16,370 nt of DNA from a virus. The stretch lies in the UHGV virus genome UHGV-1639282. One strand, given 5' to 3'. Shown piece by piece: positions 1-14,300 of the stretch (its first letter is position 1; every line of letters starts with the position of its first letter). Position numbers and translations under genes: made by a program. Under the pieces are notes generated by a model. That model had not been told where the DNA came from and searched no databases. It saw only the letters and a list, made by a program, of their open reading frames with translations.

Positions 1-1116
1 CTCACATAAAACCCTATTATCTCTATATTGTTCATTTTTTTCTTTTATTATATTTAGAATATTGCTTTCAGAAGAAACATAACCGTTCTTAAGGTAAAAA
101 TCTATATCATCATCGAAAGCACTTTCTGCTCGTTCATAAATAACATCAAGGCTATTAACAAATGAATATACAGAGTTAACTTCTTCCTTTTCATCTTTAT
201 CATCTAACATATAGTCGAATGCATGTATATTTTTGATTGACTCCTTAAATGAAGCATAATCAACGTTAGGAACACCAAAATAGTAAACCACTGAAAATAA
301 GACCAATCTATTAATAAAACTTTCTCTAACCTTATCCTCTGCTAACTTTAGCACATCTCTAAATATAACTAGAGATGATTTTATTTTATTTAATATTCTA
401 ATGTTTTTGATGTTTAAATCATTTACTAGGTTTTTTAACAAAAGAAAATCAGGGTCAGTCTCATAAAAAACTTTTCTTAAGTTTTTCTCAGGCGTGGGAT
501 CGTATTTTATTTCCACATCAATTATTTTTTCTCTATACTCTAAAAACTGTTGTTGTGCAGTTTCTTCATGTAAGTTATCTTCATTTAATATTAGAACAAC
601 CTTGCAATTTTTTCTTCTTGCCAACTCATCAATTACCCCCATAATCTCTTTAATTTCTAGCGCACTACCTTTTCGTTCAATATCATCAATGCAAACCAAA
701 TAATTATTAACAAATTTATACTCAAGAGATGACAGCAGATTATCAGTTTTGAACCCAAAAAAATCGTTCTTTCCAAAATGTATTAAAAATTTTGACAAGG
801 AGTTGTATTTCAACCATCCCCAAAACCCATTTCTATAACGAATCATAGTTCGATCCGTTTCAGATAAAATCAGTTCTTTATATTTCTTTTCATTAATTGG
901 TGTGGCACAATGATAAAGAGCTTTTTTAATGTCTCCAATAGAATTTATTCCAAACAAAGAAACATATGAATATGCATTATAATCTAATTTTTTAGAATGT
1001 TTAGTATAAAAGCTATTCCAATAATGCGTTTTACCTACTCCCCAATTTCCTTTTATGACAGCAACCCGATGATCTGAGTCCAAAAAATTTTTTAAAAATA
1101 CTTCTATCGATTCCAT
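1..1116 (-). CDS. KAP-family P-loop NTPase, 5' partial (ATG at 1116-1114; ORF runs off the window start, at least 372 codons)
   Basis: I scanned all 372 minus-strand codons from 1116 to 1 and found no in-frame stop; the upstream in-frame stop is at 1123-1125. The supplied ORF track does not list this ORF. Translation starts MESIEVFLKNFLDSDHRVAVIKGNWGVGKTHYW. GNWGVGKT (nt 1027-1050) is the Trp-containing Walker A typical of KAP NTPases, and LVCIDDIERK at residues 139-148 fits the KAP Walker B. SD-like AAGGA lies ~12 nt upstream of the ATG. The region is much more AT-rich than its neighbours. Confidence 0.6.
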   Translation of the reverse strand, partial: MESIEVFLKNFLDSDHRVAVIKGNWGVGKTHYWNSFYTKHSKKLDYNAYSYVSLFGINSIGDIKKALYHCATPINEKKYKELILSETDRTMIRYRNGFWGWLKYNSLSKFLIHFGKNDFFGFKTDNLLSSLEYKFVNNYLVCIDDIERKGSALEIKEIMGVIDELARRKNCKVVLILNEDNLHEETAQQQFLEYREKIIDVEIKYDPTPEKNLRKVFYETDPDFLLLKNLVNDLNIKNIRILNKIKSSLVIFRDVLKLAEDKVRESFINRLVLFSVVYYFGVPNVDYASFKESIKNIHAFDYMLDDKDEKEEVNSVYSFVNSLDVIYERAESAFDDDIDFYLKNGYVSSESNILNIIKEKNEQYRDNRVLCE

Positions 1117-1137: not shown

Positions 1138-1166
1138 TATATTGGGCGTAACAAACGCCCAATATA
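1138..1166. other. Perfect 11-bp inverted repeat with 7-nt spacer (TATATTGGGCG-TAACAAA-CGCCCAATATA) between the small ORF stop and the KAP NTPase start
   Basis: Read directly from the sequence. It sits 1 nt after the stop codon at 1168-1170 and exactly at the AT-rich/GC-normal boundary. There is no U-tract on the minus-strand side, so it is not a canonical terminator for the genes here. It may be a protein-binding palindrome or an RNA stem-loop. Confidence 0.4.
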
Positions 1167-1167
1167 A

Positions 1168-1527
1168 TCACCCTTTCTTCATCAACTCGCGTTTAATTTC
1201 ATCGGTACGCATCGTGACATCGGCAGCTGTGATCGCCTCGTTAAGTTTCACGATGTCCTCGATTTCCTGCGGTGTCTTCTCCGCAAGATGGAAAATAGCA
1301 GCACGAATCACATCAGAGCGGGTGAATTTCTCGAAGCGAGGGATGAACTTCATCATCTCCAGCAGTTCGAAGTATTCGTCCTCCAGTGACATTGTGCGGC
1401 TTTTAATTTTCTCTTTGCCACGAGTCGGGCGTCCCTGTGGTCTGACTGGTTGGCGCAAAGGAGTTGTGTTCTTAGCCGGTGCATCAGGCTCTTTGCGCTT
1501 TGCTAGGTCACCCATTTTCATGGACAT
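1168..1527 (-). CDS. Small basic protein (119 aa), possible ParG-like partner of the ParA-like ATPase
   Basis: Start ATG overlaps the upstream gene's stop (TAATG at 1525-1529). The N-terminal ~45 residues are Lys/Arg/Pro-rich and look disordered (KRKEPDAPAKNTTPLRQPVRPQGRPTRGKEKIKSR). The C-terminal part (KFTRSDVIRAAIFHLAEK) looks like a strand-helix unit. The function is inferred from gene context only. Confidence 0.45.
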   Translation of the reverse strand: MSMKMGDLAKRKEPDAPAKNTTPLRQPVRPQGRPTRGKEKIKSRTMSLEDEYFELLEMMKFIPRFEKFTRSDVIRAAIFHLAEKTPQEIEDIVKLNEAITAADVTMRTDEIKRELMKKG

Positions 1528-2195
1528 TATTCTTCTTCCTCCAGACTCAACAGATAATCTACAAATTCTTCAAACTCGGCTTCCGCCTTTTTGTCGCGCT
1601 CGCTACCGGTCATTTCAAAGATAGAACGACCAGACTCTTCCGCATCATCATAGACGTTGCGGTTATATAGATTGACTGGCGCAGACTCGATGCCAAACGT
1701 CTCAACAATCTCTTTAGCCGCCAAAATGCGAGACACTTGTGATGGCAAAGCCGGGCACTGGTTCATGACCGCGCGGACCTTCACTTTATCGTTCACATTA
1801 CGAACATTGTCGATAATAGGATCGATGTCACGCAGAGATTTCAAATCACGACGCTTAGGACGAAGCGGGATAATGATAACGTCGGCCATCAGCATCGCTT
1901 GTCGCTGAATTTCGGAGTCAAAGCCACCAGCATCTACCACTACATACTCAGCTCTACCCTGAAGCGATTTTAGGTGCTTAATGATGTCATCCTGAACGTA
2001 TGCAAAAGGAATCAGCTCAAGGTCTTCGTTCTGTCGACGGTCTTCACACCAGCTTGTTGTCGTGCGCTGAATATCTATATCAGTGATATAAACCTTCTTC
2101 TTCTTTTTGACTTTCAGGCAAACGGCAATTTGCTGGGCAACAGTGGATTTGCCAGGCCCGCCCTTTGTGCCGCCAACCACAAAGATCTTGGTCAT
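1527..2195 (-). CDS. ParA/Soj/MinD-family ATPase with deviant Walker A (222 aa)
   Basis: N-terminus MTKIFVVGGTKGGPGKSTVAQQIA contains the deviant Walker A KGGxGK[ST]. A VVVDAGG motif follows, and the size matches small type-Ib partition ATPases. The protein ends in an acidic tail (LSLEEEE). ATG at 2195-2193 with AAGGGA ~9 nt upstream. Confidence 0.8.
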   Translation of the reverse strand: MTKIFVVGGTKGGPGKSTVAQQIAVCLKVKKKKKVYITDIDIQRTTTSWCEDRRQNEDLELIPFAYVQDDIIKHLKSLQGRAEYVVVDAGGFDSEIQRQAMLMADVIIIPLRPKRRDLKSLRDIDPIIDNVRNVNDKVKVRAVMNQCPALPSQVSRILAAKEIVETFGIESAPVNLYNRNVYDDAEESGRSIFEMTGSERDKKAEAEFEEFVDYLLSLEEEE

Positions 2196-2341
2196 TGGAG
2201 AGTTCCCTTTGCGTATATAATTATCGTCTGAAACAACTTGTTTTCTTATATGTGATATAGCCTAAATGCCTACGGCTGCGGTGTAAAGGTTATTTAGTAG
2301 GTTGTTATTGCCTATTGCTAGTAACTGTTTTCATTTGTCTG

Positions 2342-2370
2342 TTGAAAAAAGTGACAATCATCTCTATATT
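2342..2370 (+). promoter_or_regulatory. Candidate sigma70 promoter TTGAAA-N17-TATATT, directed toward ataR
   Basis: Hexamers at 2342-2347 and 2365-2370 with a 17-bp spacer, each 5/6 match to consensus. The predicted start site falls on the dyad at 2375-2393. It lies ~145 bp upstream of the ataR ATG. Sequence pattern only. Confidence 0.3.
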
Positions 2371-2374
2371 ACGA

Positions 2375-2393
2375 GTACGGTAAATTGCCGTAC
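2375..2393. promoter_or_regulatory. Dyad symmetry GTACGG-N7-CCGTAC, candidate operator
   Basis: Inverted hexamers read directly from the sequence, positioned at the predicted +1 of the candidate promoter in the divergent region between the ParA-like gene and ataR. Confidence 0.3.
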
Positions 2394-2417
2394 ACAATTT
2401 GATGACACATACGCAAT

Positions 2418-2504
2418 GGGCTATAGCCCAGTTAAATAACCTTTGAGTCGAAAACTCAGTTTAAATAGAGAGCAATGATGGCCTTCCTACATCACCGGCC
2501 ATCA
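2418..2504. promoter_or_regulatory. Cluster of dyad symmetries in the ataR leader: GGGCTATAGCCC (2418-2429), TGAGT-N5-ACTCA (2444-2458), TGATGGCC-N13-GGCCATCA (2476-2504)
   Basis: A perfect 12-bp palindrome and two inverted repeats read directly from the sequence. The last one ends at the ataR Shine-Dalgarno (AGGGGG, 2505-2510). Type II antitoxin/TA complexes commonly autoregulate by binding palindromes in their own promoter region. Confidence 0.3.
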
Positions 2505-2514
2505 GGGGGTACAC

Positions 2515-2784
2515 ATGTCCGCACTGAAAAAGCAGCGCATCGATTTGAGATTAACCGATGACGATAAAAGCATCATCGAGGAAGCTGCCGCAATGTCTAA
2601 CCAGAGCATTACCCAGTTCATGGTTAGCAGTGCATCCGAACGTGCCGTGAAGGTGATAGAGCAACACCGTAGACTGGTTCTAAGTGAAGAGTCCTGGAAT
2701 CTGGTTATGGACGCTATAAGCAATCCTCCGGCACCGAACGACAAGCTGAAACGAGCTGCCAATCGTCTGAAAAGCATGGAGTAA
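2515..2784 (+). CDS. ataR: DUF1778-type RHH antitoxin (AtaR/TacA family)
   Basis: 89 aa: MSALKKQRIDLRLTDDDKSIIEEAAAMSNQSITQFMVSSASERAVKVIEQHRRLVLSEESW. It closely resembles AtaR/TacA sequences as I recall them, and it sits 7 nt upstream of a GNAT toxin gene. ATG with AGGGGG SD. Confidence 0.88.
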   Translation: MSALKKQRIDLRLTDDDKSIIEEAAAMSNQSITQFMVSSASERAVKVIEQHRRLVLSEESWNLVMDAISNPPAPNDKLKRAANRLKSME

Positions 2785-2791
2785 TTTACTC

Positions 2792-3313
2792 GTGAGCAAT
2801 ACGACGATCGAGATTTTCTCTGGAGAGAACGATTATGATCTAAACGGTTTTGATTGCGGCGAAGAGTCACTAAACGCATTTTTGACCAACCACTTAAAAA
2901 GACAGCATGAAGGAAAAATTCTTCGCGCTTATGTGCTTTGCACTAAAGAAGAAATACCAAAGGTATTAGGTTATTACACTTTGTCAGGCAGCTGCTTTGA
3001 GAAAGAAACCTTACCTTCAAAGAGTCAGCAAAAGAAAGTGCCTTATCGGAATGTCCCAAGTATCACTTTAGGCAGACTGGCTTTGGACAAATCTCTTCAA
3101 GGTCATGGGCTTGGCTCAATGCTTGTAACACATGCAATGCGCGTTGTGTACAATGCATCTCTTGCTGTAGGCATTCATGGACTTTTCGTTGAGGCGTTAA
3201 ATGACAAAGCCAAGGCGTTTTATAAAAGTTTAGGCTTTATCCAGCTGGTTGGTAACAACGAGCGTTCTTTGTTCTATCCTACAAAATCTATCGAAAAATT
3301 GTTCGAAGAATAA
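2792..3313 (+). CDS. ataT: GNAT-family acetyltransferase toxin (AtaT/TacT family, aminoacyl-tRNA acetylating)
   Basis: 173 aa, GTG start with GGAG upstream. Contains the GNAT core LQGHGLGSMLVTHAMRVVYNASLAVGIHGLFVEALNDKAKAFYKSLGF and the N-terminal DYDLNGFDCGEESLNAFL segment typical of AtaT/TacT. Classic antitoxin-then-toxin order. Confidence 0.88.
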   Translation: MSNTTIEIFSGENDYDLNGFDCGEESLNAFLTNHLKRQHEGKILRAYVLCTKEEIPKVLGYYTLSGSCFEKETLPSKSQQKKVPYRNVPSITLGRLALDKSLQGHGLGSMLVTHAMRVVYNASLAVGIHGLFVEALNDKAKAFYKSLGFIQLVGNNERSLFYPTKSIEKLFEE

Positions 3314-3316
3314 TGT

Positions 3317-3338
3317 GTTCCCCTCATTTGAGGGGAAC
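3317..3338. terminator. GC-rich hairpin (GTTCCCCTCA-TT-TGAGGGGAAC) between convergent ataT and o-spanin stops
   Basis: 10-bp perfect inverted repeat, 4 nt after the ataT stop (3311-3313) and 8 nt before the o-spanin stop (3346-3348). Flanking T-runs are short on both sides, so efficiency is uncertain. Plausibly a bidirectional terminator. Confidence 0.45.
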
Positions 3339-3345
3339 TTCGACA

Positions 3346-3561
3346 TCACCAACCACAAACCCTCTCTCCCATCGTATTGTGAAAAAGGATTTGGCGTTCG
3401 GTTTCTTCAGTCATTACATCATTATTGCTGATATAGATAGGCTCAGCCCCATCGCAGAACAACACGCTGGCTGTTTGTGGTTTAATGACGCACCCACTTA
3501 TCATACAACTCACGATGAACGGCAGAAGCATCTTTCTGACGTATTTTACTGCTCGTCTCAT
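3346..3561 (-). CDS. Putative o-spanin (Rz1-like outer-membrane lipoprotein), overlapped architecture
   Basis: N-terminus MRRAVKYVRKMLLPFIVSCMISGC has a basic n-region, a hydrophobic core and a lipobox-like ISGC. It is a short protein with additional Cys residues. It starts inside the 3' part of the i-spanin gene in another frame and extends beyond it. Confidence 0.5.
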   Translation of the reverse strand: MRRAVKYVRKMLLPFIVSCMISGCVIKPQTASVLFCDGAEPIYISNNDVMTEETERQILFHNTMGERVCGW

Positions 3562-3733
3562 TCACCACTTTCACTGTGTTTTGAAGTCGTTTTCTGTCTT
3601 CCTGTTTTGCCTTCTCTTCCATTGCTCGTCGCGCCGCATTCCCGCCCATCGTGTAAGCGCCGACAAGAACGAAAAGAACGGCAGCCAGCGTAATCAAAGC
3701 AACTTTTAGCTTTGTCATCAGGCTGCCTAGCAT
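3482..3733 (-). CDS. Putative i-spanin (Rz-like): N-terminal TM helix plus charged helical periplasmic domain
   Basis: 83 aa with TM segment LKVALITLAAVLFVLVGAYTM followed by a charged helical region (RRAMEEKAKQEDRKRLQ). The ATG is 1 nt after the stop of the upstream hydrolase-like gene. It is short for an Rz protein, so the call is tentative. Confidence 0.5.
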   Translation of the reverse strand: MLGSLMTKLKVALITLAAVLFVLVGAYTMGGNAARRAMEEKAKQEDRKRLQNTVKVVNETSSKIRQKDASAVHRELYDKWVRH

Positions 3734-3734
3734 A

Positions 3735-4427
3735 TTAGACCATCCCTTTCTGGTGTTTTCTTACCTGCGACCAGGCAATGAATCCTGCCACAACAATAGT
3801 GGCAATACCGAAGATGATGCGTACTGTATCCCCGCTAGAGATATGACCTTGTGCTTTATCCATAGCAGCGGAAACCTGCGGCATAACATCGGCCAGCTGA
3901 GCCAGACCAATACCTGCTGTAACAGTTGCGCCTGCGGTTTCTTTAGTTACAGGAACAGCCTTCACGGTTTTCACCGGCTTAACAACGCCAGCTCGACGCA
4001 GACCTTCCTCAATAACTTCTGCCGCATACCAGGTGTTCAGCGTTTTTAGCGGGCCTCGGCCATTCTCGTGGCGAATGATTGCCTCAACCAAAGGTCGAAG
4101 GATGTCGTAATCATGCAGATCGATGATCATGTCTGCGGTTACACCAACGGCTTTAGACACCTCATTAATGTAGGCGTCAGTATTGTTTTCATTCGGCGGT
4201 GCCCAGCGTTCAATAACTTCACGAATGGTATCGATACTTGTGCCGTCTTTTGCGCGACGTTTATCGTGGTAGGTAATTAGAGTCACCGCCAGCGCACGAA
4301 TCCCCCAAACAGGGTCTTTAAACGTGCAAAAGCGCGGTTCGTCTGGATTCGCAACCAGACCTTGCCACGGTGATCCTTTATCAAGATTACCGGGGTTATT
4401 ATTACGAATGCCTCTCGGGGTCTTCAT
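3735..4427 (-). CDS. Putative endolysin-like protein with C-terminal transmembrane anchor (230 aa from ATG 4427; the ORF track's 4454 start is GTG)
   Basis: Starts MKTPRGIRNNNPGNL with a strong SD (CAGGAGA) 8-9 nt upstream of the ATG at 4427-4425. The C-terminus has a Lys/Val/Thr-rich linker and a hydrophobic helix IIFGIATIVVAGFIAWS. The N-terminal motif is reminiscent of phage lytic-enzyme families, but I cannot confirm the family without a search. The lysis role is inferred mainly from the adjacent spanin pair. Confidence 0.45.
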   Translation of the reverse strand: MKTPRGIRNNNPGNLDKGSPWQGLVANPDEPRFCTFKDPVWGIRALAVTLITYHDKRRAKDGTSIDTIREVIERWAPPNENNTDAYINEVSKAVGVTADMIIDLHDYDILRPLVEAIIRHENGRGPLKTLNTWYAAEVIEEGLRRAGVVKPVKTVKAVPVTKETAGATVTAGIGLAQLADVMPQVSAAMDKAQGHISSGDTVRIIFGIATIVVAGFIAWSQVRKHQKGMV

Positions 4428-4440
4428 CCTTGATCTCCTG

Positions 4441-4764
4441 TTATTGCAGTCCACTTTTTACGCCATACGCGGCTAACCCCAAAAGCAGTGCGGTAATAAT
4501 GAACGACGTTATTTTAGAAACAATGCCGCCAAAGAACCCACTTGAGATGGAATCTAACCGGTTAAGGAGTTTGTCCAGATTGGAGTGTTGAATACTATGT
4601 TGCGCCGGGGTCATATCACCAAAGTAGGTTTTCAGCTGATCATTGACCTCCTGGCCAATTTCTTCACGTAGCTCTTTACCTAATTTGCCAACAACCTCCC
4701 GAGCAACGATCGCGGCAATACGCTCAACTTGCTCTGTTGTAACGCCCGCCATCTCGTTCGACAT
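4441..4764 (-). CDS. Small membrane protein, possible holin or lysis regulator (107 aa from the ATG at 4764, which has a GGAGGA SD)
   Basis: The ORF track starts at 4776, but the in-frame ATG at 4764-4762 has GGAGGA 6 nt upstream. There is a soluble ~85-aa N-terminal region and a single C-terminal TM helix (ITSFIITALLLGLAAYGV). Its position immediately upstream of the hydrolase-like gene suggests a holin role, but the topology is atypical. Confidence 0.4.
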   Translation of the reverse strand: MSNEMAGVTTEQVERIAAIVAREVVGKLGKELREEIGQEVNDQLKTYFGDMTPAQHSIQHSNLDKLLNRLDSISSGFFGGIVSKITSFIITALLLGLAAYGVKSGLQ

Positions 4765-5086
4765 GTTTTCCTCCATGAAAAGTCAAATCGGGATGGCGGA
4801 TTTATATCACATTTCACCCTTTTGTTGTAGGTGTGTACTTACCTATCATTCAGCATTGCAACCGATTGATGAGAAAGCACCTACTCCAACCCATCGCCAG
4901 TTATAGATGCTACACGCTTTGTATAAGGTATAGTCGTTCACTTTTTTAACAGCATATATGGGTATGACTGTCTCCTGTCCACCAATGATAGCTTCACCAT
5001 AACATATAGGTGTCGGCAATTTCTGGCAGCCAGTAAGAGAGAGAACAACAGCTATTGTTAGAAATAATCTTTACATCATTTACTCA

Positions 5087-5695
5087 TCAGTTATACAGAT
5101 TTCTATTTATTACCGGTACTCTGCCATTTACGCTAAAACTATGGCCGCCATTAAGTTGGTTTACGAATATCGAGCTAACAGTATTTCCATATGCCGCATA
5201 TCCATAAACCATTGTCATGGCTCCGCCCGGTACTGGAACAGCGGACACATTCGCATATGTTGGGATTATCGCTGGAGGGTAATCAAAAACATGCTCTCCA
5301 GAGCTGTTCCACTCCGTATTATTAAGAAAGGTAAATGAAAGTGGGATATTTGCCGTATTATAGATTTCCTCCCCTTGTGCATTGAAAAAACTCATGCCCC
5401 AAGTTTCTTTTTTGGCTATACCTTTCGAAAATACGTATATCGTGGCACTAGAGTCGCTACCCCGACCTCCGAAACTGTAAATCACCTGGTTGTTACGCAC
5501 TATTCTGTTGGCTATTAATGAAACAGCTTTCGAATAGACAACAAAAATAATCGGTGAACGATCTGGAGATATTTTGGTGTTAAACTCTGTCCCGCCGGAC
5601 AAAGAAACAACCTGCTTTCTCTGAAAAACGATAGGAGACAAAGAAGGAGACATCCAGACCTTCCCGTCAGATCGATATATCTTGCTTCCGTACAT
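5087..5695 (-). CDS. Hypothetical protein (202 aa), Ser/Gly/Asn/Tyr-rich, no signal peptide recognised
   Basis: Complete ORF with ATG at 5695-5693 overlapping the stop of the upstream ORF (TAATG). Composition suggests a beta-rich fold. No family recognised. GC looks somewhat lower than the tail genes. Confidence 0.55.
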   Translation of the reverse strand: MYGSKIYRSDGKVWMSPSLSPIVFQRKQVVSLSGGTEFNTKISPDRSPIIFVVYSKAVSLIANRIVRNNQVIYSFGGRGSDSSATIYVFSKGIAKKETWGMSFFNAQGEEIYNTANIPLSFTFLNNTEWNSSGEHVFDYPPAIIPTYANVSAVPVPGGAMTMVYGYAAYGNTVSSIFVNQLNGGHSFSVNGRVPVINRNLYN

Positions 5696-5949
5696 TATTT
5701 TTGAAAAACCAATATGTTTAAATTACCACTAGCTCCAGACCACGAAATGGTATTTCCAGAAACCGTAAGACTTGTGTACTTTCCATTGGTTACGTCCATT
5801 ATGTAATAGTCGATTCCCAATCCCGCCTCAACCTCATATGTTCTACTTCCTGAACCAGAGGGAGTAAAATAATCGAGGTAATAAACAGGGGCCAACGCAT
5901 TGACCATCTCCTGTCTTGATGGCGACCAAACCTGTGCACCATAGCTCAT
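5695..5949 (-). CDS. Hypothetical protein (84 aa), translationally coupled to the downstream 202-aa ORF
   Basis: ATG at 5949-5947 preceded by AAGGA. The stop TAA overlaps the next start by one base. No recognisable motifs. Confidence 0.5.
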   Translation of the reverse strand: MSYGAQVWSPSRQEMVNALAPVYYLDYFTPSGSGSRTYEVEAGLGIDYYIMDVTNGKYTSLTVSGNTISWSGASGNLNILVFQK

Positions 5950-6641: not shown

Positions 6642-9600
6642 TTAAATACTTCCCGCGTTATACCATGTACCATTGATACAATACTGCACCGGCCTTGCCT
6701 GAGTTGTATCAATAAGTTCGTCCTTATTTGAGTTAATTGAGGCAGTAACAACATAACCAGATTTATCGTTCCATCCAGGACCATTCCATGTTTGCACAGA
6801 CGATTTTGTACCTAATCGAATACCTGTAATAAATCGTGAATTACATTCTGCTTTGGTATATGCCCCAACATCTCCCGCAGATGGTTTGCGTGTTGTAGTA
6901 TAAAATTCCGACCAGTCGGCTTCAAAACCATAACCGTCACGCGCAGAACGATAATAAATACCGCCGTTCTTATAATTCACGCGGAACTGTACAGCAGGGC
7001 AGCTCCCCGTATTCATATTGAAGTGGAGGATTAATGTCGATGCTCCACTGATATCTGCATCATAAACACCGCTATTCCAGTTCCAGCCAACAGCTTTATC
7101 ATTTGCAACCCTGCTTCCTGTTTGCCCTAAAGCAAATGCAGGCTGCTGGTTTTTCGTGTTGTAGTCTCGTCGCCAGCCAGGAGCATAAGCATCACCATGA
7201 TTAATATAAGTGAATTGTGCATTAGTAGTTCCGCCACCGCTGGAAGTGCTCGGGGTGGTTACACGGATGGTCATGGCACCTTTATTACCCATAACCTCAA
7301 TAACGCAACCAGCAAGGTGAATAAGTCCACATCCGGTGTCAGTAATAATTTTATTATTGCCGTATGACCATGAGCATTTACACATCCAGTATGGATGATT
7401 GAAGGCCCACTGAGATTCCAGCCATTCAATAAATTGCGCCGTCGTCCAGTTTCCTGCACCTGTGCTAATAGAGCCATGAAAAGAGCGGCAAGCACCTATT
7501 GTTTGCGTAAATTTATCTTTGTTTGGAATATCTGCGCCGTTCTGGTTTTTCTGTAATGCTCCTGCGGCTAATTCTACAGTTTGCTCAAGATTTAAATCTG
7601 CCGCCGTTAGCTCAATATTTTTAGAACCGTCAAACGACACCCCATTTATAGTTCTAGCGGTTTGTAACTTGGTCGCTGTAGCCGCGTTACCGGATGTATT
7701 CTGATTACCCGCAACGTTAACACCAGGTAAATTAATATTCGCAGTGCCATCGAAGCTAACACCACCGATGGTTCTTGCTGTCGCAAGTTTTGTCGCGGTA
7801 GCAGCATTCCCCGTGGTGTTCTGGTTACCAGCAATGTTTACACCCGGCAGGTTGATATTGGCGGAGCCATCGAATGACACGCCGCCTATTGTGCGTGCTG
7901 TTTGCAGTTTTGTTGCAGTTGCAGCATTACCGTTCAAACTACCATTGATGCCGCCAGTAACATTGAGTCCATTACCAATGGACACAGCACCGCTGGTATT
8001 ATTAATTGTAATAGGTCGCAAACCGTTCCATGAACCTAATGTGTCTCCTGATGCTGTTAGCATGAAATATGTGTTCGATCCATCATTACGGATAAAGAAC
8101 CCAAAGCTACCGTAAGCAATGCGGAAACCATTTGCATATTTTGAAATGATCTCGCCAGAAGATGTCAAACCTCCAGATAATGTACCACCGGTAAGAGGTA
8201 ATGCACCGACATCAGCCGCAGTAGGCTTGTTTTTAGTGTTATAAGAACGACGCCAGCCTGGCGCATAATCACTCCCATTGTACACATAAATAAATTCCGC
8301 ATTATTAACACCACCATGACCTGATGTTGTTGTCGTTGTAACACGAATAGTGTAGTGGCTTGTTGACTTATTACTAAACACCTCAATCACGGAACCAGAT
8401 AGATCGATCCTACCGCAACCAGTGTCGTCTATATAATTATTGTTGGCGTAAGCCCATGAGCACCGTGCAATCCAATATTTGTTTGAAAATGCACCCTGAT
8501 TATTTAGCCAAGTTATAAATTGAGCAGTCGTAAATGGCGTTCCGTTACCACTATTTAACCATCCAGCGGCAGCGGTTGGCGCGTTTATATCAGCCGGCTG
8601 AGGCATAAATCCAGTCGTGTAAACCTGCTCCCAACCACTTTCAAAACCATAGCCATCGCGAGATGAACGATAAAACAACCCACCATTTTTATAGTGAGCC
8701 TTAATTTGAAGCGTACGGCAACTACCTACACCAGTATAAAAGTTGGCAAGAATATAACTGTCGCCCGTTCTAGTTACATTATAAGCACCAGATTCAGCAT
8801 TCCACGGCACGCCGCCATCAGCATCAGCATATGACCCTGTTGCTCTTCTTGCGAAAGCGGCAACATGCGCGGCGGTTAAAGTGATATCAGTAGAGCCATC
8901 AAATGGAACACCGGATATTTTTCTTGCAGTCTGAAGTTTCGTAGCTGTATCAGAGTTCCCCTTAACCCCTTTTGGAGAATTAAGTGGTGTATTGATCGTC
9001 ACTTCACCTGTTGCGTTATTTACTGCAAATGGTCGAAGACCGTTCCAGCCACCGTACTGGTCGCCTTTATCAGTCATGAGCAAGTAAGTATTTGCTCCAT
9101 CATTTCGCCATATGACACCGTAATCGCCAGCAATCATCCTTAACGCATTCTGACTACGGACAATAACTTCATCATTAGCGTAAACCTTATTACCGCTAAT
9201 ATCCGCATTTGTGAGGAGTGCGTGCGAACTATAGAATCCTCTACCGTTGGAGAAATCAAGTATAGTATCAGCGTCCACGCATTCTGTTCTAGGGTCTGTA
9301 GCGCCCCATTTGTAAGTTGATTGCCCGATAACATAATCGGCAGATGGTACAACAACAGATAAGCCTTCTTCTACATATACAGCAATAGGAAACGCTTCAC
9401 CTTCAACATAGAACACAGAACACAGATCATCCGCTTTTCTACCCATCATGATAGAATGAATAGCACGCTCATTTGCGTGATAGATATGAAACATTCCATA
9501 AGCATAATGTCCCCTGTCAGTCCAACCGCCAGGCATGACAAAACCATTGAACTCACAGTTGTTCATCCTATCATTGGCAGTCTTTGAACTTGTACTTATC

Positions 9601-11297
9601 GTCACCCTGGATGCTAATTCACTGCTGAATCCAGAAGAACGACGAATAACCACAGGGTAAAACTTACCAGCTTCAACTCCTGCGGGCGCATTCACTGTTG
9701 AATACTTCATTCCTCGTTTAGCGGCCATATCAGTCTTGCTGGCAGCATTAATGTTGCTCAGGAAGCGGCCCTTGTCTGGGATATCAGCGCCATTCTGATT
9801 CTTCGCCAATCGGCTATTCGCATTGTCATTGGCTGCTTTTACTGCCTTTGGCGTTGCCGCCAGCGTTTCAGACGTGCTGTTGGTCGCACTGCTGAGCTGT
9901 ACTATCCCCTTTTTCGTCGTGCTCGCATCCTCAAGCGCCACAGCGGATGCAATATCCTCTGCCCGTTTTGCCGCTGTCTCGGCGCGCGTTGCCGCGGATT
10001 CTGCCGTACTTTTGCTCTGTGCTGCCGCCGTCGCACTGCCAGCTGCCTCTGTCGCCTTCGTGGATGCCGTCGTGGCGCTGCCCTTCGCTGCTGACGCTTG
10101 TCTGGTCGCCTCATCTTTTGAAGCAGACGCAGATGATGCCGATGACGCCGCCGAACTGGCTGACGATGCGGCAGCCGTTTTTGAGGATTCTGCGCTGGTT
10201 TCCGACGCTTTCGCGTTCGTTTCGGATGTCTTCGCTGCGGAAGCAGACCTCGCTGCTGCGCTGGCCTGTTCAGTGGCTTCGCCAGCCTTCGTTGTGGCTG
10301 TTGAAGCAGACGATGCGGCGCTTTCTGCCGATTTTCCGGCGGCGGTGGCACTGGCTGAGGCCTGCCCGGCACTTGTTGACGCGGCACTGGCAGACGACGC
10401 AGCCGCTGTTTTTGAGCCTGCCGCAGCTGAGGCGCTCTGTCCCGCTGCCGTCTCAGAAGACTTAGCGTTCGTCTCGGACGTTTTTGCCGCCTTCGCGGAA
10501 TTTGCTGCCGCCGTTGCCGAGGAAGCTGCGCTACTGGCGCTCAAGGATGCGTTCGTTTCTGATGATTTCGCTGCCTCTTTTGAGGCCGCCGCATCCCGGG
10601 CTGAGGTGGCAGCTTCTGACGCTTTCGTGGTCGCGGTGGATGCAGAAGTGGCTGCTGATTGTTGTGACGCTGCGGCATTCGTTTCAGATTTTTTCGCAGC
10701 AGTTGCACTCGCACTTGCGGCACTTTGTGAGGATGCCGCATCGGATGCACTTTGAGACGCTTGAGAGGCTTTTTCTCCAGCGGTATTGGCGCTTTCTGCT
10801 GCTGCGGCAGCACTGGCCGCCGCCTCACGAGCTTTGTCGCCAGCAGCATCAATCGCGTCAGTGTTATTTTTATACCACTCAACGTTTTCGTTGTGCTCGT
10901 TGACGATCTGCATTAGCGGCTTAACGGTTACTTCTGTACCGTCTTCACGCTCGATTGTCACCTCATCCAGCGCAGTCAACCAACTGCGCATGGACTTGGA
11001 ATCAGCCGACATACGCGACATTAGCGCAGTAAAGCGCGCGCTAAACTGTGTTAAGTCGCCTTCATAGGTCGTAATGATTCGGCACGGAACCTCAGACTGA
11101 GTTTCGCCGGTATAAGGTTCTGAGAGAACAATGTTCGTATCACTGGTTACGCGCTTGATCTCATACAGCTTATTGTCGGGGCCAATGACGATCATCCCCG
11201 GCAACACACCATTAGCTGTTACGTTCCAGGCTGTCCCTGCCCCAACCAGAGTATTGCTACCCTGTGTAAATGTGATAGTACCTTCCCTGTACCACAT
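6642..11297 (-). CDS. Side tail fiber protein (Stf-like), 1551 aa, mosaic
   Basis: ATG with AAGGAG 8 nt upstream. Long Ala/Ser/Thr-rich shaft containing [24 protein letters not shown] and [42 protein letters not shown], which I recall as near-identical to lambda Stf. Phage tail fibre repeats ([29 protein letters not shown]) in four copies. Duplicated distal modules, followed by tfa. Confidence 0.9.
7590..7945 (-). repeat. Three tandem ~120-bp coding repeats (phage tail fibre repeat, ~40 aa each) inside stf; a fourth isolated copy near 8880-8960
   Basis: Protein repeats [40 protein letters not shown] x3 with matching DNA periodicity visible at 7600-7940. The isolated copy reads [29 protein letters not shown]. 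Boundaries are approximate. Confidence 0.6.
9950..10850 (-). repeat. Low-complexity GC-rich (GCN-codon) Ala/Ser/Thr-rich shaft-coding region of stf
   Basis: About 300 aa dominated by A/S/T with recurring KTSETNA/SASAA motifs. Its lack of stops in several frames produces the long spurious overlapping ORFs on both strands in the supplied track. Boundaries are approximate. Confidence 0.6.
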
Positions 11298-11317
11298 GTT
11301 GAATATGCTCCTTGATT

Positions 11318-11340
11318 TGGCGGGTTATCCTTGCCCGCCA
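11318..11340. other. Hairpin TGGCGGG-N9-CCCGCCA in the J-stf intergenic region, just upstream of the stf RBS
   Basis: 7-bp GC stem read directly from the sequence. A T-rich tract follows on the plus side (11341-11390). On the minus strand it directly precedes the stf Shine-Dalgarno. Confidence 0.3.
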
Positions 11341-11390
11341 TTAAGTAAATACTTACCTATTTTTACCGATATAAAAATTTTTTTCCACCA

Positions 11391-14300
11391 TCACAGACGG
11401 CCAATTCTTACTCGTAGGACGTTGTTATCGTCATAAACGTCAATCCGCTGACCATTTATAACCAATCGCCCATTGCCGCCGCTATTACCGTTGATCTCAA
11501 GCGTTCCATTTTTGCCGAACCGCCATCCAGATCTACCGCTAACAAAATTGGTAGATTGCAGATCGCCTACTTTTGCATTGGTGATTGTGCCATCCTTGAT
11601 ATACGCTCCATTCATATAGGCGATACTGTTTTCGATAACAAATGGCGTTGTGATCTTCCCGTTAACAGAGTTGACCAAACCAAACCTGTCCGCCTGAACC
11701 AAAAACTGAGATAGCCCAGTGGTGTCAATACCAAGCGCAATACCGGCAACATACTTCTGCCCTCCGCTCGTTGAAGTCTCCATTTTCAACGTCCACGCGG
11801 TTGATACTTTTTTGTTGGTATCAGCAATAGCTGTTGCCTGCTGTTGAATTGTCGCGGTATTTCCATCCACCTCTGCTTTCAGAGTATCGATTCGCCCACT
11901 CAGAGCATTATCTGCCTGCGTTCTCGCTGTCGTTTCAGTTGTTACCGCCGCGGAAATGTTGGCTGCCGTTTGAGACTCTAAGTTTGTGATTTGAGTCGCC
12001 AATGCAGCATCTTGCTCTGTACGCGTTTTCGTTTCGGTTGCTACAGCCGCTTTAATATCCTCTTTGTATTGAGAGGTCAGCTTGGTGATCTGAGACGACA
12101 ACGCCGAGTCAGCATCAGTTCGAGCCTGCGTTTCAACTGCAACGGCCGCACTAATATCTTTCGCTGTCTGTGCTTTTAAACTTGAAACCTCTTTTGTTAA
12201 AGCGGTATCACCATCTGCACGAGCCGTTGTTTCTCTGGCAAGAGACGCCTCGAGATCATTAGCTTTTGCTGTAAGAGACGTAATCTGGGTAGACAATGCA
12301 CTATCGGCATCAGTCCTTGCTTTTGTCTCTACAGCAACCGCTGCGGCAATATCAGTTCCGGTTTGTGCTCGCAGGCTGTTAATTTCTCGTGAGAGCGCCT
12401 GGTCAGCACTTGCTCTGGCCTCCTGCTCCTGAGTGATGGCAGCGGATATATCACCGTCAACCTTTGACTGAAGCTGGTTTATTTGTTTGGCTAACGCAGA
12501 GTCCCCGCTTGCTCGGGCCTCCTGCTCACTACGTATTGCAGCAGAAATATCATCATCAACCTTTGCCTGAAGTTGGGTGATCTGGCTTGCCAGAGCCGAA
12601 TCTTCCGTTGCTCGGGCTTCTTGCTCTTCCTTAATAGCTGCGACGATATCGTTGCTTACTTTCGACTCAAGCTGAGTGATCTGTGTCGTCAGAGCTTCAT
12701 CGGCAGATGTACGAGCCTCCTGCTCTGTACTAATCGCCGCGCTGATATCTCCTTCAAACTTAGATTGCAGCTGAGTGACACGCTTTGCCAACGCTTCATC
12801 GCCATCGGCACGAGCGGTGGACTCTTCCAGAATACTGGCCTTAATGTCTTCGCCAATTTCTACGCGAATTTCCTCAACCTTCGTGGCCATTGCAGACATA
12901 TCATCAGCAAAGGTTTTCTGTGTTGTTGCGATCTTCGCGTTATTGACCATCTGCTTGTGCTGGTCTTCATCTTGACGAAGAGCCAGGTCAATATTTGTTT
13001 TGGCTAACGCCTCAATGTTCGTAGTCAGTTCTGCACTGGTACGATCGACCTCTGCAACCGTCTTTTTCATTTCTTCAACGGCAGCGGAGCTTTCCTCTAC
13101 CGTTGACTGCAACACTTCCAGTTGTTTAGCGTTTGCAGCATCGCCTTCAACACGAGCCTCGCTTTCCTTAGCAATAAGAGCCGCCGCTTCATCTCTTGCA
13201 GCCTTTATTGCCTCGACTGTATTAGCGAGAGCTTTATCGTGTTCAGATACGGTGTTTTCGATTTCAACAATTGCAGCATCAGTAGCATCAATTTTTTCAA
13301 ACGCTTCATTGACCTTGTCGATCGTTGCCGAAACCTCACCTTTAAGCTCGGTTTGTGCGTTCTCCAAAGCATCGCTACGCTCGTTGAATTTTATTTCAAA
13401 ATCCGCGAGGTTATCGCTGAACTGCTTATCTAATTCAGCTATATCTTCCTTAACGTCGTTTACCGCCCCCTCCAAAGATTCGACGCTCTGGTTGATATGC
13501 TCATTTAACTCGTCAACTGCTTCTTGAGAGGCTTTGCTGTTGATGTCCTCAAGCAGAGCCTGACCAAGCTCGGAAGATGTAATTTTGCCAGTCAGGAACG
13601 ACAGTACATCGCGAGTTGTCGCCTCTGTACCCAAGTTTGAGTTCGGAGGACTTAACATACCTCGCTTGTTCGATGCTCGAACCCAGTAATACCACGTTTC
13701 GCTATCCCCAAGACCAGCATGTGTAAAGGTGGTGCTTGCAGACTCTGCGATCAGTTTCGCCGTATCCAGATTGTTGGTCTGGGATGCGTAAACATTAATG
13801 TGATCAAGGTCTACCGAATCTGGATTAACCCAATTCAGTATCACATTACGATAGTCTCCAACGGCCGTTAATGACGTTGGGGAATCCGGCGGTGTCATTG
13901 TGCCCAACACCTGATAAACGGCACTGATAATCTCTGTTTTTTTACCGTTGAATGAAACCGCATACAGCTGGAAGTCGTAGCGTCCATTCTCCGCGACATT
14001 AACGATTTCGTATTGCTCTTCGGTTACACGCGCCGATTGCCAGTTCGATACATTGTTTTCATCAGAACGTCGCCAACTGATCCAATACTCTGGAGATTTC
14101 CCTTCCCATGTTGCAGTCAGTTTTACTGACAGGTTGCCCGGGCTTGAGAGATAAGTCCCTTCAGTGATTTGCAGATTAGATGGCTTGGAGTAAGTTGGGT
14201 CCAATACCGTCGTATTCTGCGGGATCAGCGTTGCACCATTGTCGATTGCCTCATATTTAGACGGATTGTTCTCAACAGCGGTGATGTCAAAGCTACCCGG

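Follow-up and report, generated by a model that had tools for sequence, protein, structure and literature searches.

PifA of the F plasmid, a P-loop nucleoside triphosphatase (NTPase) of the KAP family, excludes phage T7 and lacks transmembrane (TM) helices (PMC13001434). Fusions of a KAP NTPase to an effector region gave E. faecalis a protection that depended on Walker B (PMC12632615), and the helical arms of the P-loop NTPase Tmn sense a phage protein (PMC13001434). Here, we describe a further candidate of this type, a gene (designated the KAP gene) that runs off the left edge of UHGV virus genome UHGV-1639282. The 16,370 nucleotides (nt) of this stretch are referred to as the window. The window was found to be part of an SSU5/pHCM2-type phage-plasmid, a class of elements linked to multidrug-resistant Shigella sonnei and S. 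Typhi lineages (10.1101/2025.09.12.675607). The KAP gene occupies an exchangeable cargo slot behind the partition genes parAB of this element, and its context and sequence point to an immunity gene that acts as a single protein. The KAP family is used throughout as defined by Pfam and by two published accounts (PMC13001434; PMC12632615), and the coordinates of all features are collected in Table 1.

The first-pass annotation of this DNA, made from the letters alone, had described an open frame of 372 codons on the minus strand that was missing from the mechanical list of open reading frames (ORFs). Retranslation of positions 1-1116 likewise gave 372 codons and zero stops, and the frame is missing from the list because it overruns the end of the window. 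The gene starts with an ATG (1116-1114) that is preceded 9 nt upstream by an in-frame TAG (1123-1125) and by a Shine-Dalgarno-like GAAGGA (1126-1131). Intact copies were detected in complete plasmids as a gene of 1,707 bp that encodes 568 amino acids (aa) and is annotated as 'P-loop NTPase fold protein', with WP_152065179.1 and WP_114569656.1 as examples; the window fragment is identical to these 568-aa copies at 368/372 and 371/372 residues (NZ_CP031136.1, NZ_JBTHVF010000003.1). Based on the complete-plasmid copies, approximately 196 residues would lie past the window edge and the stop codon would be approximately 590 nt outside. Both of the motifs reported earlier, Walker A GNWGVGKT and Walker B LVCIDDIER, were found in the frame, and the reported drop to AT-rich composition at the gene was also apparent, with a G+C content of 0.28-0.29 over positions 1-1000 compared to 0.45-0.48 from position 1001 on. 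The full-length KAP gene has a G+C content of 0.295, compared to 0.47-0.50 in parA, parB-like, phrog_2500 and dnaB. Directly upstream of the KAP gene and co-oriented with it is the parB-like gene, which is next to parA in all relatives. The earlier statement that the KAP gene adjoins a toxin-antitoxin (TA) module did not hold, as the parB-like gene and parA (1168-2195) separate it from TacA/TacT (2515-3313).

The protein was assigned to a family by profile searches. KAP_NTPase (PF07693) was the sole Pfam family to score over its cutoff (20 bits), the fragment scoring 27.1 bits and the full-length protein 25.8 bits in a match that spans aa 18-258 and profile positions 22-282 of 293. Membership of the KAP family, as proposed in the first-pass annotation, was upheld by this search, with a narrow margin compared to the 148.5 bits of PifA. 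Among PADLOC models, the protein matched PDC-S49 only (E 1.2e-22 and 2e-21). An end-to-end match was obtained to phrog_4740 of PHROGs, a group of unknown function (E 9e-165), and no family model was matched in an NCBIfam search. In an alignment of 77 sequences, residues G23, W25, G26, G28, K29 and T30 of Walker A and C142, D144, D145, E147 and R148 of Walker B were invariant, as were R195 and R240 and, in the C-terminal half, G345, W508 and R561. An insertion of TM helices in the NTPase domain, which the first-pass annotation had raised, was ruled out by Kyte-Doolittle scan: no TM helix was detected in the protein, the top 19-residue window scoring 1.60 (aa 403-421), and no 19-residue window of high hydropathy was found between the Walker motifs. 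Many KAP members typically have TM helices, but their absence does not disqualify the protein from the family, since PifA is also without them (PMC13001434). Judged by sequence, the protein belongs to a peripheral, soluble lineage of the KAP clan and is neither a PifA orthologue nor a member of the Tmn/YobI group.

PifA (NC_002483) is similar to the KAP protein in that it is plasmid-borne in E. coli, acts as a single protein without TM helices (PMC13001434) and has an N-terminal KAP_NTPase domain followed by a long helical C-terminal region. Its GAWGSGKT and VVMDDLDR match the same GxWGxGKT and hhhhDDxxR patterns. By contrast, BLASTP aligned the two proteins over the P-loop only (9/17 residues, E 0.06). 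PifA scored 963 bits on the PADLOC PifA model, to which the KAP protein had no match at E<=1, and 148.5 bits on the Pfam KAP profile compared to 26-27 for the KAP protein. The two proteins also differ in length (741 aa for PifA, 568 aa for the KAP protein) and in setting, as the KAP gene follows parAB and is without the upstream pifC repressor gene. Of the kinship to PifA that had been proposed earlier, the common motif types stood, and a relation past the family level did not.

Comparison to other described or candidate systems was similarly instructive. PDC-S49 is a single-gene candidate of similar length (profiles of 619-629 positions) that all tested members of the KAP protein family match, including the homologues from Klebsiella, Salmonella, Pragia, Oleispira and Pseudomonas. 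These matches are of partial coverage, mainly over the NTPase half, and range from 60 to 94 bits across the family, which on this sequence evidence looks like a sister lineage of PDC-S49 and not a member of it. QatA and PDC-S20 differ from the KAP protein, which matched neither model although PifA matches both, and no Qat-like neighbours were present. By description, EF_KAP and its metagenomic relatives (PMC12632615) are likewise single genes that join a KAP NTPase to a region of approximately 300 residues without known domain; however, their hosts are Firmicutes, and EF_KAP has two N-terminal TM helices, whereas the KAP protein is TM-less. Tmn (YobI-family) is comparable as a single-gene P-loop NTPase on E. 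coli mobile elements, but it carries two TM helices inside its P-loop domain and forms a Mg2+-exporting membrane decamer; the KAP protein has no TM segment, and no PADLOC model other than PDC-S49 was matched by it. Unlike STAND NTPases of the Avs or NLR-like type, the KAP protein had no tripartite effector-NTPase-sensor arrangement that could be found, and its match to nSTAND3 was below cutoff. We class the KAP gene as a new representative of a kind that was suspected before, the KAP-type single-gene defence candidates.

An AlphaFold2 (AF2) model of the protein was built on the 77 homologues (predicted local distance difference test, pLDDT, 86.1; predicted template modelling score, pTM, 0.70). 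The model consists of an N-terminal alpha/beta NTPase with lid, followed from approximately aa 209 by helices only, as assigned by DSSP. Residues 209-568 form approximately 25 helices and zero strands, mostly at pLDDT above 85, and winged-helix-like strands were accordingly not seen in the C-terminal half. The sole low-confidence, disordered part of the model (pLDDT below 50) is aa 99-123, which is too little hydrophobic for a TM helix. Similarity to Avs4, NOD2, ZAR1 and DARK was restricted to the generic AAA+/STAND core, and structural matches including the Cdc6/Orc1 fold were confined to the generic AAA+ core at 9-13% identity. No solved structure matched the C-terminal half, and PDB sequences, searched with a profile of the 77-sequence alignment, gave nothing at E<=1.

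We next consider the element that carries the gene. Among 5,426 complete E. coli genomes, the first 3 kb of the window has matches in 263, in every case on a plasmid of approximately 110 kb and not on a chromosome; it also matches the phage-plasmids SSU5, Cyrano, PhiR41_1 and CMS-2020a. Genes for tail fibres and a TipJ-type tail tip are found in the remaining window, together with a lysis cassette. Based on the plasmid and phage-plasmid matches together with the lysis and tail genes, the element was identified as an SSU5/pHCM2-type phage-plasmid. Within it, the KAP gene is co-oriented with parAB and stands ahead of the phrog_2500, dnaB and primase genes, which are in the same orientation. SSU5 aligns near-identically as far as the TGA that ends the parB-like gene and is unrelated past this codon, and the matches to Cyrano, PhiR41_1 and SSU5 begin at positions 1167-1172. 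At the far junction, which is outside the window, homology returns a few bases past the KAP stop codon at a long conserved hairpin, ACCTGCTTC...GAAGCAGGT and then CTTTT. This 60-nt palindromic hairpin, which is at 7320-7400 (minus strand) of the pGMI17-003_2 locus, folds at -28.3 kcal/mol (z -7.2) with CUUUU following. It is common to E. coli, Salmonella and SSU5 and is present in diverged form in Klebsiella elements; it is probably the terminator of the par operon as well as an anchor of homology for the exchange of cargo. In the empty state, the slot is reduced to the parB-like stop, approximately 28 nt and the conserved hairpin. From the exact junctions and the empty slots, the cargo is placed past the final gene of the partition operon and ahead of its terminator-like hairpin, which supports the view of the first-pass annotation that the KAP gene is separately acquired cargo.

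The contents of the slot were surveyed with a flank-only query, which retrieved 260 E. coli plasmids, and a spread sample of 60 rows was read for content. By this approach, at least six slot states were distinguished: a LEM-3-like GIY-YIG gene, the KAP gene, a DUF2971 gene, a gene for a 352-aa unknown protein, a gene for a 225-aa unknown protein, and empty. Insertions of IS1 or IS100 were occasionally seen in the slot. The GIY-YIG gene was detected in 107 genomes, always on plasmids, and matches PADLOC PD-T4-3 (E 1.6e-23), a system also named CMoRE, which is a type IV restriction enzyme that protects against T-even phages (10.1101/2024.12.20.629700; PMC12923530). In SSU5 and Cyrano, the slot is filled by the DUF2971 gene, for which PADLOC gave a match to its candidate PDC-S31. 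The KAP gene was found in 28 E. coli genomes, plasmid-borne only, and is absent from approximately 89% of related E. coli plasmids. The genes for the 352-aa protein (NZ_CP163030.1, locus 2615-3673, plus strand) and the 225-aa protein (NZ_CP019283.1, locus 2698-3375, plus strand) are on the strand opposite parAB and are, by their position, additional unannotated defence candidates. Sharp junctions, mutually exclusive and unrelated fillings that include a validated defence gene, and empty variants were all found at this position, and these are the hallmarks of a defence hotspot of mobile elements. The P2/P4-type hotspots of phages and satellites (Rousset 2022, cited in PMC10879196) are alike in having a fixed backbone position, swapped and unrelated defence systems, sharp junctions and sometimes no filling, and are unlike the KAP slot in that the latter is set within the tail of a plasmid partition operon, here in a phage-plasmid of the SSU5 type. 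PD-T4-3, PrrC, PD-T7-5 and restriction-modification systems are named in a survey of such elements that was based on DefenseFinder (10.1101/2025.09.12.675607). The term 'hotspot' has 0 occurrences in that survey, and no description of a slot between the parB-like gene and the terminator was found in the papers searched.

Alleles of the KAP gene were compared within and among host genera. Klebsiella and Salmonella elements carry KAP genes in the same slot and orientation with 38.5% and 43.6% aa identity, respectively, compared to the 84-93% identity of their parB-like, phrog_2500 and DnaB proteins to those of E. coli. In Klebsiella, the KAP start as annotated overlaps the stop of the parB-like gene. 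In E. coli, the two alleles, represented by NZ_CP031136.1 and NZ_CP172196.1, are 76% identical, compared to 99% for the flanking proteins, and their identity per 50-residue block is 84-96% in aa 1-300 and 52-62% from aa 350. For these alleles, the ratio of nonsynonymous to synonymous substitution (dN/dS) was 0.16 for aa 1-260, 0.10 for aa 261-340 and 0.28 for aa 341-568, and synonymous divergence (dS) over the same segments was 0.36, 0.64 and 0.86, compared to flanks of 97-99% nucleotide identity. Overall, KAP values ranged over 0.10-0.29 for dN/dS and 0.25-1.0 for dS. The low dN/dS reveals that the KAP gene is functional and under purifying selection. From the high dS compared to the near-identical flanks, the alleles are far older than the backbones and were brought in partly as mosaics by recombination. 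No positive selection was detectable by dN/dS at this resolution, all values being below 0.3; thus, the divergence reflects old alleles and recombination, and not detectable adaptive change. All four KAP alleles are approximately 30% G+C, down to 38% identity, and this composition is therefore a trait of the lineage and not proof of recent arrival. The C-terminal half is the fast-diverging part, and is presumed to be a module for specificity or sensing.

Beyond these elements, full-length homologues of approximately 565-600 aa, with 28-35% identity over 98-100% of the length, were found in Shewanella, Pragia, Oleispira, Vreelandella, Pseudomonas and Desulfobacterales. When 1.84 billion cluster representatives (50% identity) were searched with the family profile, 1,655 clusters were matched at E<=1e-30, and the best 150 of these were nearly all matched end-to-end by proteins of 535-607 aa; from such end-to-end matches, the architecture is uniform and the C-terminal domain is conserved together with the NTPase. 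The ORF is intact in more than 100 members of the 90% cluster to which the KAP protein belongs. The settings of the homologues are diverse: an isolated islet in Pragia, Vreelandella and P. frederiksbergensis, a position adjoining IS66 and a T5orf172 gene in Oleispira, and a position directly beside an S24-type repressor in a Pseudomonas prophage. No conserved partner gene was detected across the neighbourhoods examined (Pragia, Vreelandella, P. frederiksbergensis, Oleispira, Pseudomonas and Shewanella). The KAP gene is predicted from these sequence contexts to act alone and to travel with mobile DNA.

In two assemblies of Shewanella algae, a full-length KAP homologue was observed two small ORFs upstream of an OLD-family nuclease (loci 8001-12180 and 1546-5761). 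The nuclease combines AAA_15/AAA_21 with an OLD-like TOPRIM domain, and it is possible that homologue and nuclease form a defence islet.

Given that the KAP gene is co-oriented with parAB, transcripts from the par promoter probably read through into it in the plasmid state. At its 5' end, the cargo carries a hairpin (1138-1166, minus strand) with a perfect 12-bp stem, UAUAUUGGGCGU-UUGUU-ACGCCCAAUAUA, and an 81-nt segment that includes it has a folding energy of -22.3 kcal/mol (z -3.9). The two E. coli KAP alleles carry this hairpin without any difference, and SSU5, slots with other cargo and empty slots lack it; at the corresponding place of the Salmonella allele is a GC-rich hairpin of another sequence, with TTTTTT after it. 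The E. coli hairpin is without a T-run and was not accepted as an intrinsic terminator. It may instead be an attenuator, a site of RNA processing or stability, or a recombination scar.

We consider it somewhat more probable than otherwise that the KAP gene is interchangeable, stand-alone immunity cargo, directed against phages or other mobile elements, in which an NTPase switch would be coupled to a C-terminal sensor. The arguments for this reading are the location in a slot for defence genes, the dispensability of the gene, the diversity of its alleles in the C-terminal half, purifying selection, the prophage-repressor and OLD settings of homologues, and the PDC-S49 match. The candidacy as an exclusion or defence determinant put forward in the first-pass annotation is in this way supported by context only, with PD-T4-3/CMoRE in the same slot, PDC-S31 as another filling and the match of the protein itself to PDC-S49. 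In such a mechanism, the N-terminal AAA+/STAND-like NTPase would serve as a nucleotide-dependent switch (K29/T30, D144/D145, R148, R195 and R240), and the all-helical C-terminal half, which is the most variable among alleles, would recognize a trigger encoded by the invader. Recognition would drive an NTP-dependent assembly that aborts or blocks infection, an effector step modelled by analogy with TM-less PifA.

Several observations weigh against an immunity function. The inference of defence from the slot is indirect, and two of its fillings, the 352-aa and 225-aa proteins, had no match in Pfam or PADLOC. The DefenseFinder-based survey of SSU5-type elements does not mention the KAP gene (10.1101/2025.09.12.675607). 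At the level of the protein, the KAP score is near threshold, and nSTAND3 gave 21.2 bits compared to its cutoff of 27.2, over the P-loop only. Of the 624 positions in the PDC-S49 profile, only 8-320, or approximately half, are covered by the match; PDC-S49 is itself a candidate system, and no mention of it was found in the literature searched. No effector domain (nuclease, protease or membrane) was detectable in the KAP protein by profile and fold searches, and three chromosomal homologues are located amid housekeeping genes. With regard to expression, a simple scan for promoters and terminators found no convincing KAP promoter in the 51-nt spacer or the 3' end of the parB-like gene, and the hairpin at 1138-1166 may limit read-through and damp KAP expression.

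Some of these same points, namely the lack of a detectable effector domain, the homologues amid housekeeping genes and the lack of an NCBIfam model, would be expected if the gene were a host-beneficial or regulatory NTPase outside of conflict, or a selfish passenger without phenotype. However, dN/dS of 0.1-0.29 along the whole gene, an ORF kept intact in more than 100 members of its 90% cluster and an architecture of 568-580 aa kept in the 1,655 clusters at E<=1e-30 argue otherwise, as do the recurrent mobile and defence-type settings and an allele mosaic typical of conflict genes. The dN/dS values and the conserved architecture make a neutral passenger unlikely in particular, and a role outside of conflict is improbable overall. 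Competition between elements was also considered, whereby the KAP gene would exclude or destabilize rival plasmids or SSU5-type phage-plasmids and the diversity of alleles would provide discrimination of self from non-self. In favour of competition, the gene is confined to plasmids in E. coli, embedded in the partition operon and maintained as deep alleles on near-identical backbones, and superinfection immunity was earlier hypothesized for KAP proteins of Campylobacter CJIE prophages (PMC3995785). By contrast, full-length homologues occur singly in chromosomes without a phage-plasmid, and the most frequent of the other fillings acts on the DNA of T-even phages (PMC12923530). The sequence gives nothing that separates competition from anti-phage defence, and we regard competition as a rather unlikely primary function.

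The position of the KAP gene between parAB and phrog_2500/dnaB/primase, in the same orientation, is what would be anticipated for an accessory of replication or partition, whether a Cdc6/Orc-like initiator, a helicase loader working with the DnaB-like helicase and primase, or a third partition protein. The Cdc6/Orc1 fold matches and the overlap of the KAP start with the parB-like stop in Klebsiella are in agreement with such a role. Yet the gene is missing in approximately 89% of related E. coli plasmids, which include SSU5 and those with empty slots, and is elsewhere replaced by a restriction nuclease or DUF2971 gene. Its homologues stand alone in chromosomes, and its 30% G+C is unlike the backbone. 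In addition, the fold likeness is that of a generic AAA+ core at low identity, and the purely helical C-terminal half has none of the strands of a winged helix. A Cdc6/Orc1-type replication initiator was rejected, because the KAP gene is dispensable to the phage-plasmids, and an accessory role of any of these kinds is very unlikely.

Returning to immunity, phage-plasmids of the SSU5/pHCM2 type are common, with matches in approximately 260 of the 5,426 complete E. coli genomes. Should the KAP gene confer immunity, such phage-plasmids would alter the phage susceptibility of their hosts in a manner unreported by the DefenseFinder-based survey, and this would matter for phage therapy and for explaining the persistence of cryptic plasmids. 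The slot provides a compact natural catalogue of candidate single-gene defences, including two wholly unannotated proteins. The KAP protein, at 568 aa and without TM helices, is a tractable model for the mechanism of KAP NTPases, and two natural alleles that differ chiefly in the C-terminal half are ready-made material for specificity swaps. A bolder and distinctly speculative proposal, which we consider unlikely as a whole, is that the KAP gene founds a large family of soluble, effector-less immune NTPases within the KAP clan, with at least 1,655 clusters at 50% identity. In such a family, the conserved helical C-terminal domain (W508, R561) and the Cdc6/Orc-like ATPase would execute a mechanism new to bacterial immunity, for example NTP-driven capture or remodelling of the replication or packaging machinery of the invader, and not killing by nuclease, pore or NAD-type activity; through its location in the partition operon, the gene would have its expression coupled to the plasmid, or lysogenic, state of a phage-plasmid.

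Table 1. Features of the KAP gene and adjoining partition operon, in window coordinates.
Feature	Position	Strand	Basis
KAP-clan P-loop NTPase gene, first 372 of 568 codons	1..1116	-	open frame, intact near-identical copies, phrog_4740
KAP_NTPase domain, aa 18-258, AAA+/STAND-like alpha/beta core plus lid	343..1065	-	
Walker A GNWGVGKT, aa 23-30	1027..1050	-	translation
Walker B LVCIDDIER, aa 140-148	673..699	-	translation
Aromatic-rich loop between Walker A and Walker B, aa 99-123	748..822	-	AF2 model, hydropathy
Start of all-helical C-terminal half, aa 261-372 of 261-568	1..336	-	DSSP, allele identity
12-bp hairpin, parB-like stop to KAP start	1138..1166	-	folding
Right-hand slot junction, TGA of parB-like gene	1168..1170	-	alignment to SSU5
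parB-like small partition-operon gene (phrog_5111)	1168..1527	-	ORF list; PHROG match E 1.5e-79
parA partition ATPase, first gene of the operon	1527..2195	-	Pfam AAA_31, MipZ, CbiA, ParA; RefSeq annotation

Other variable positions were observed on these elements. The region from the parA promoter to the lysis cassette is a second such position, which in the window is filled by a TacA antitoxin gene (2515-2784, plus strand; Pfam TacA1, E 3.5e-26) and a GNAT TacT-type toxin gene (2792-3313, plus strand). The corresponding position holds two unrelated hypothetical genes in pGMI17-003_2 and SSU5 and the TA pair in Cyrano. An ORF of 126 aa (3313-3693, plus strand) begins at the TacT stop and overlaps an Rz-like ORF on the opposite strand (3482-3733). 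This 126-aa ORF had no Pfam, PADLOC or PHROG match and could either belong to the TA cargo as its third gene or be open by chance. Just upstream of primase is another variable position, which in pGMI17-003_2 encodes a 417-aa TPR protein (locus coordinates 2596-3849, plus strand) with a weak, sub-threshold PtuA-like P-loop match (E 1.5e-4). In SSU5, the same position encodes an unrelated 321-aa protein (locus 1536-2501, plus strand), and in p3PT-111kb it is empty.

Within the tail-fibre ORF (6642-11297), positions 9699-10898 (minus strand) encode approximately 330 residues of low complexity that are rich in Ala, Ser and Thr, with recurring KxSETNA-like units. Tandem Repeats Finder called no DNA repeat at 9699-10898. 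A G+C peak of 0.59-0.62 and a strong AT skew are accounted for by this Ala/Ser/Thr-rich stretch.

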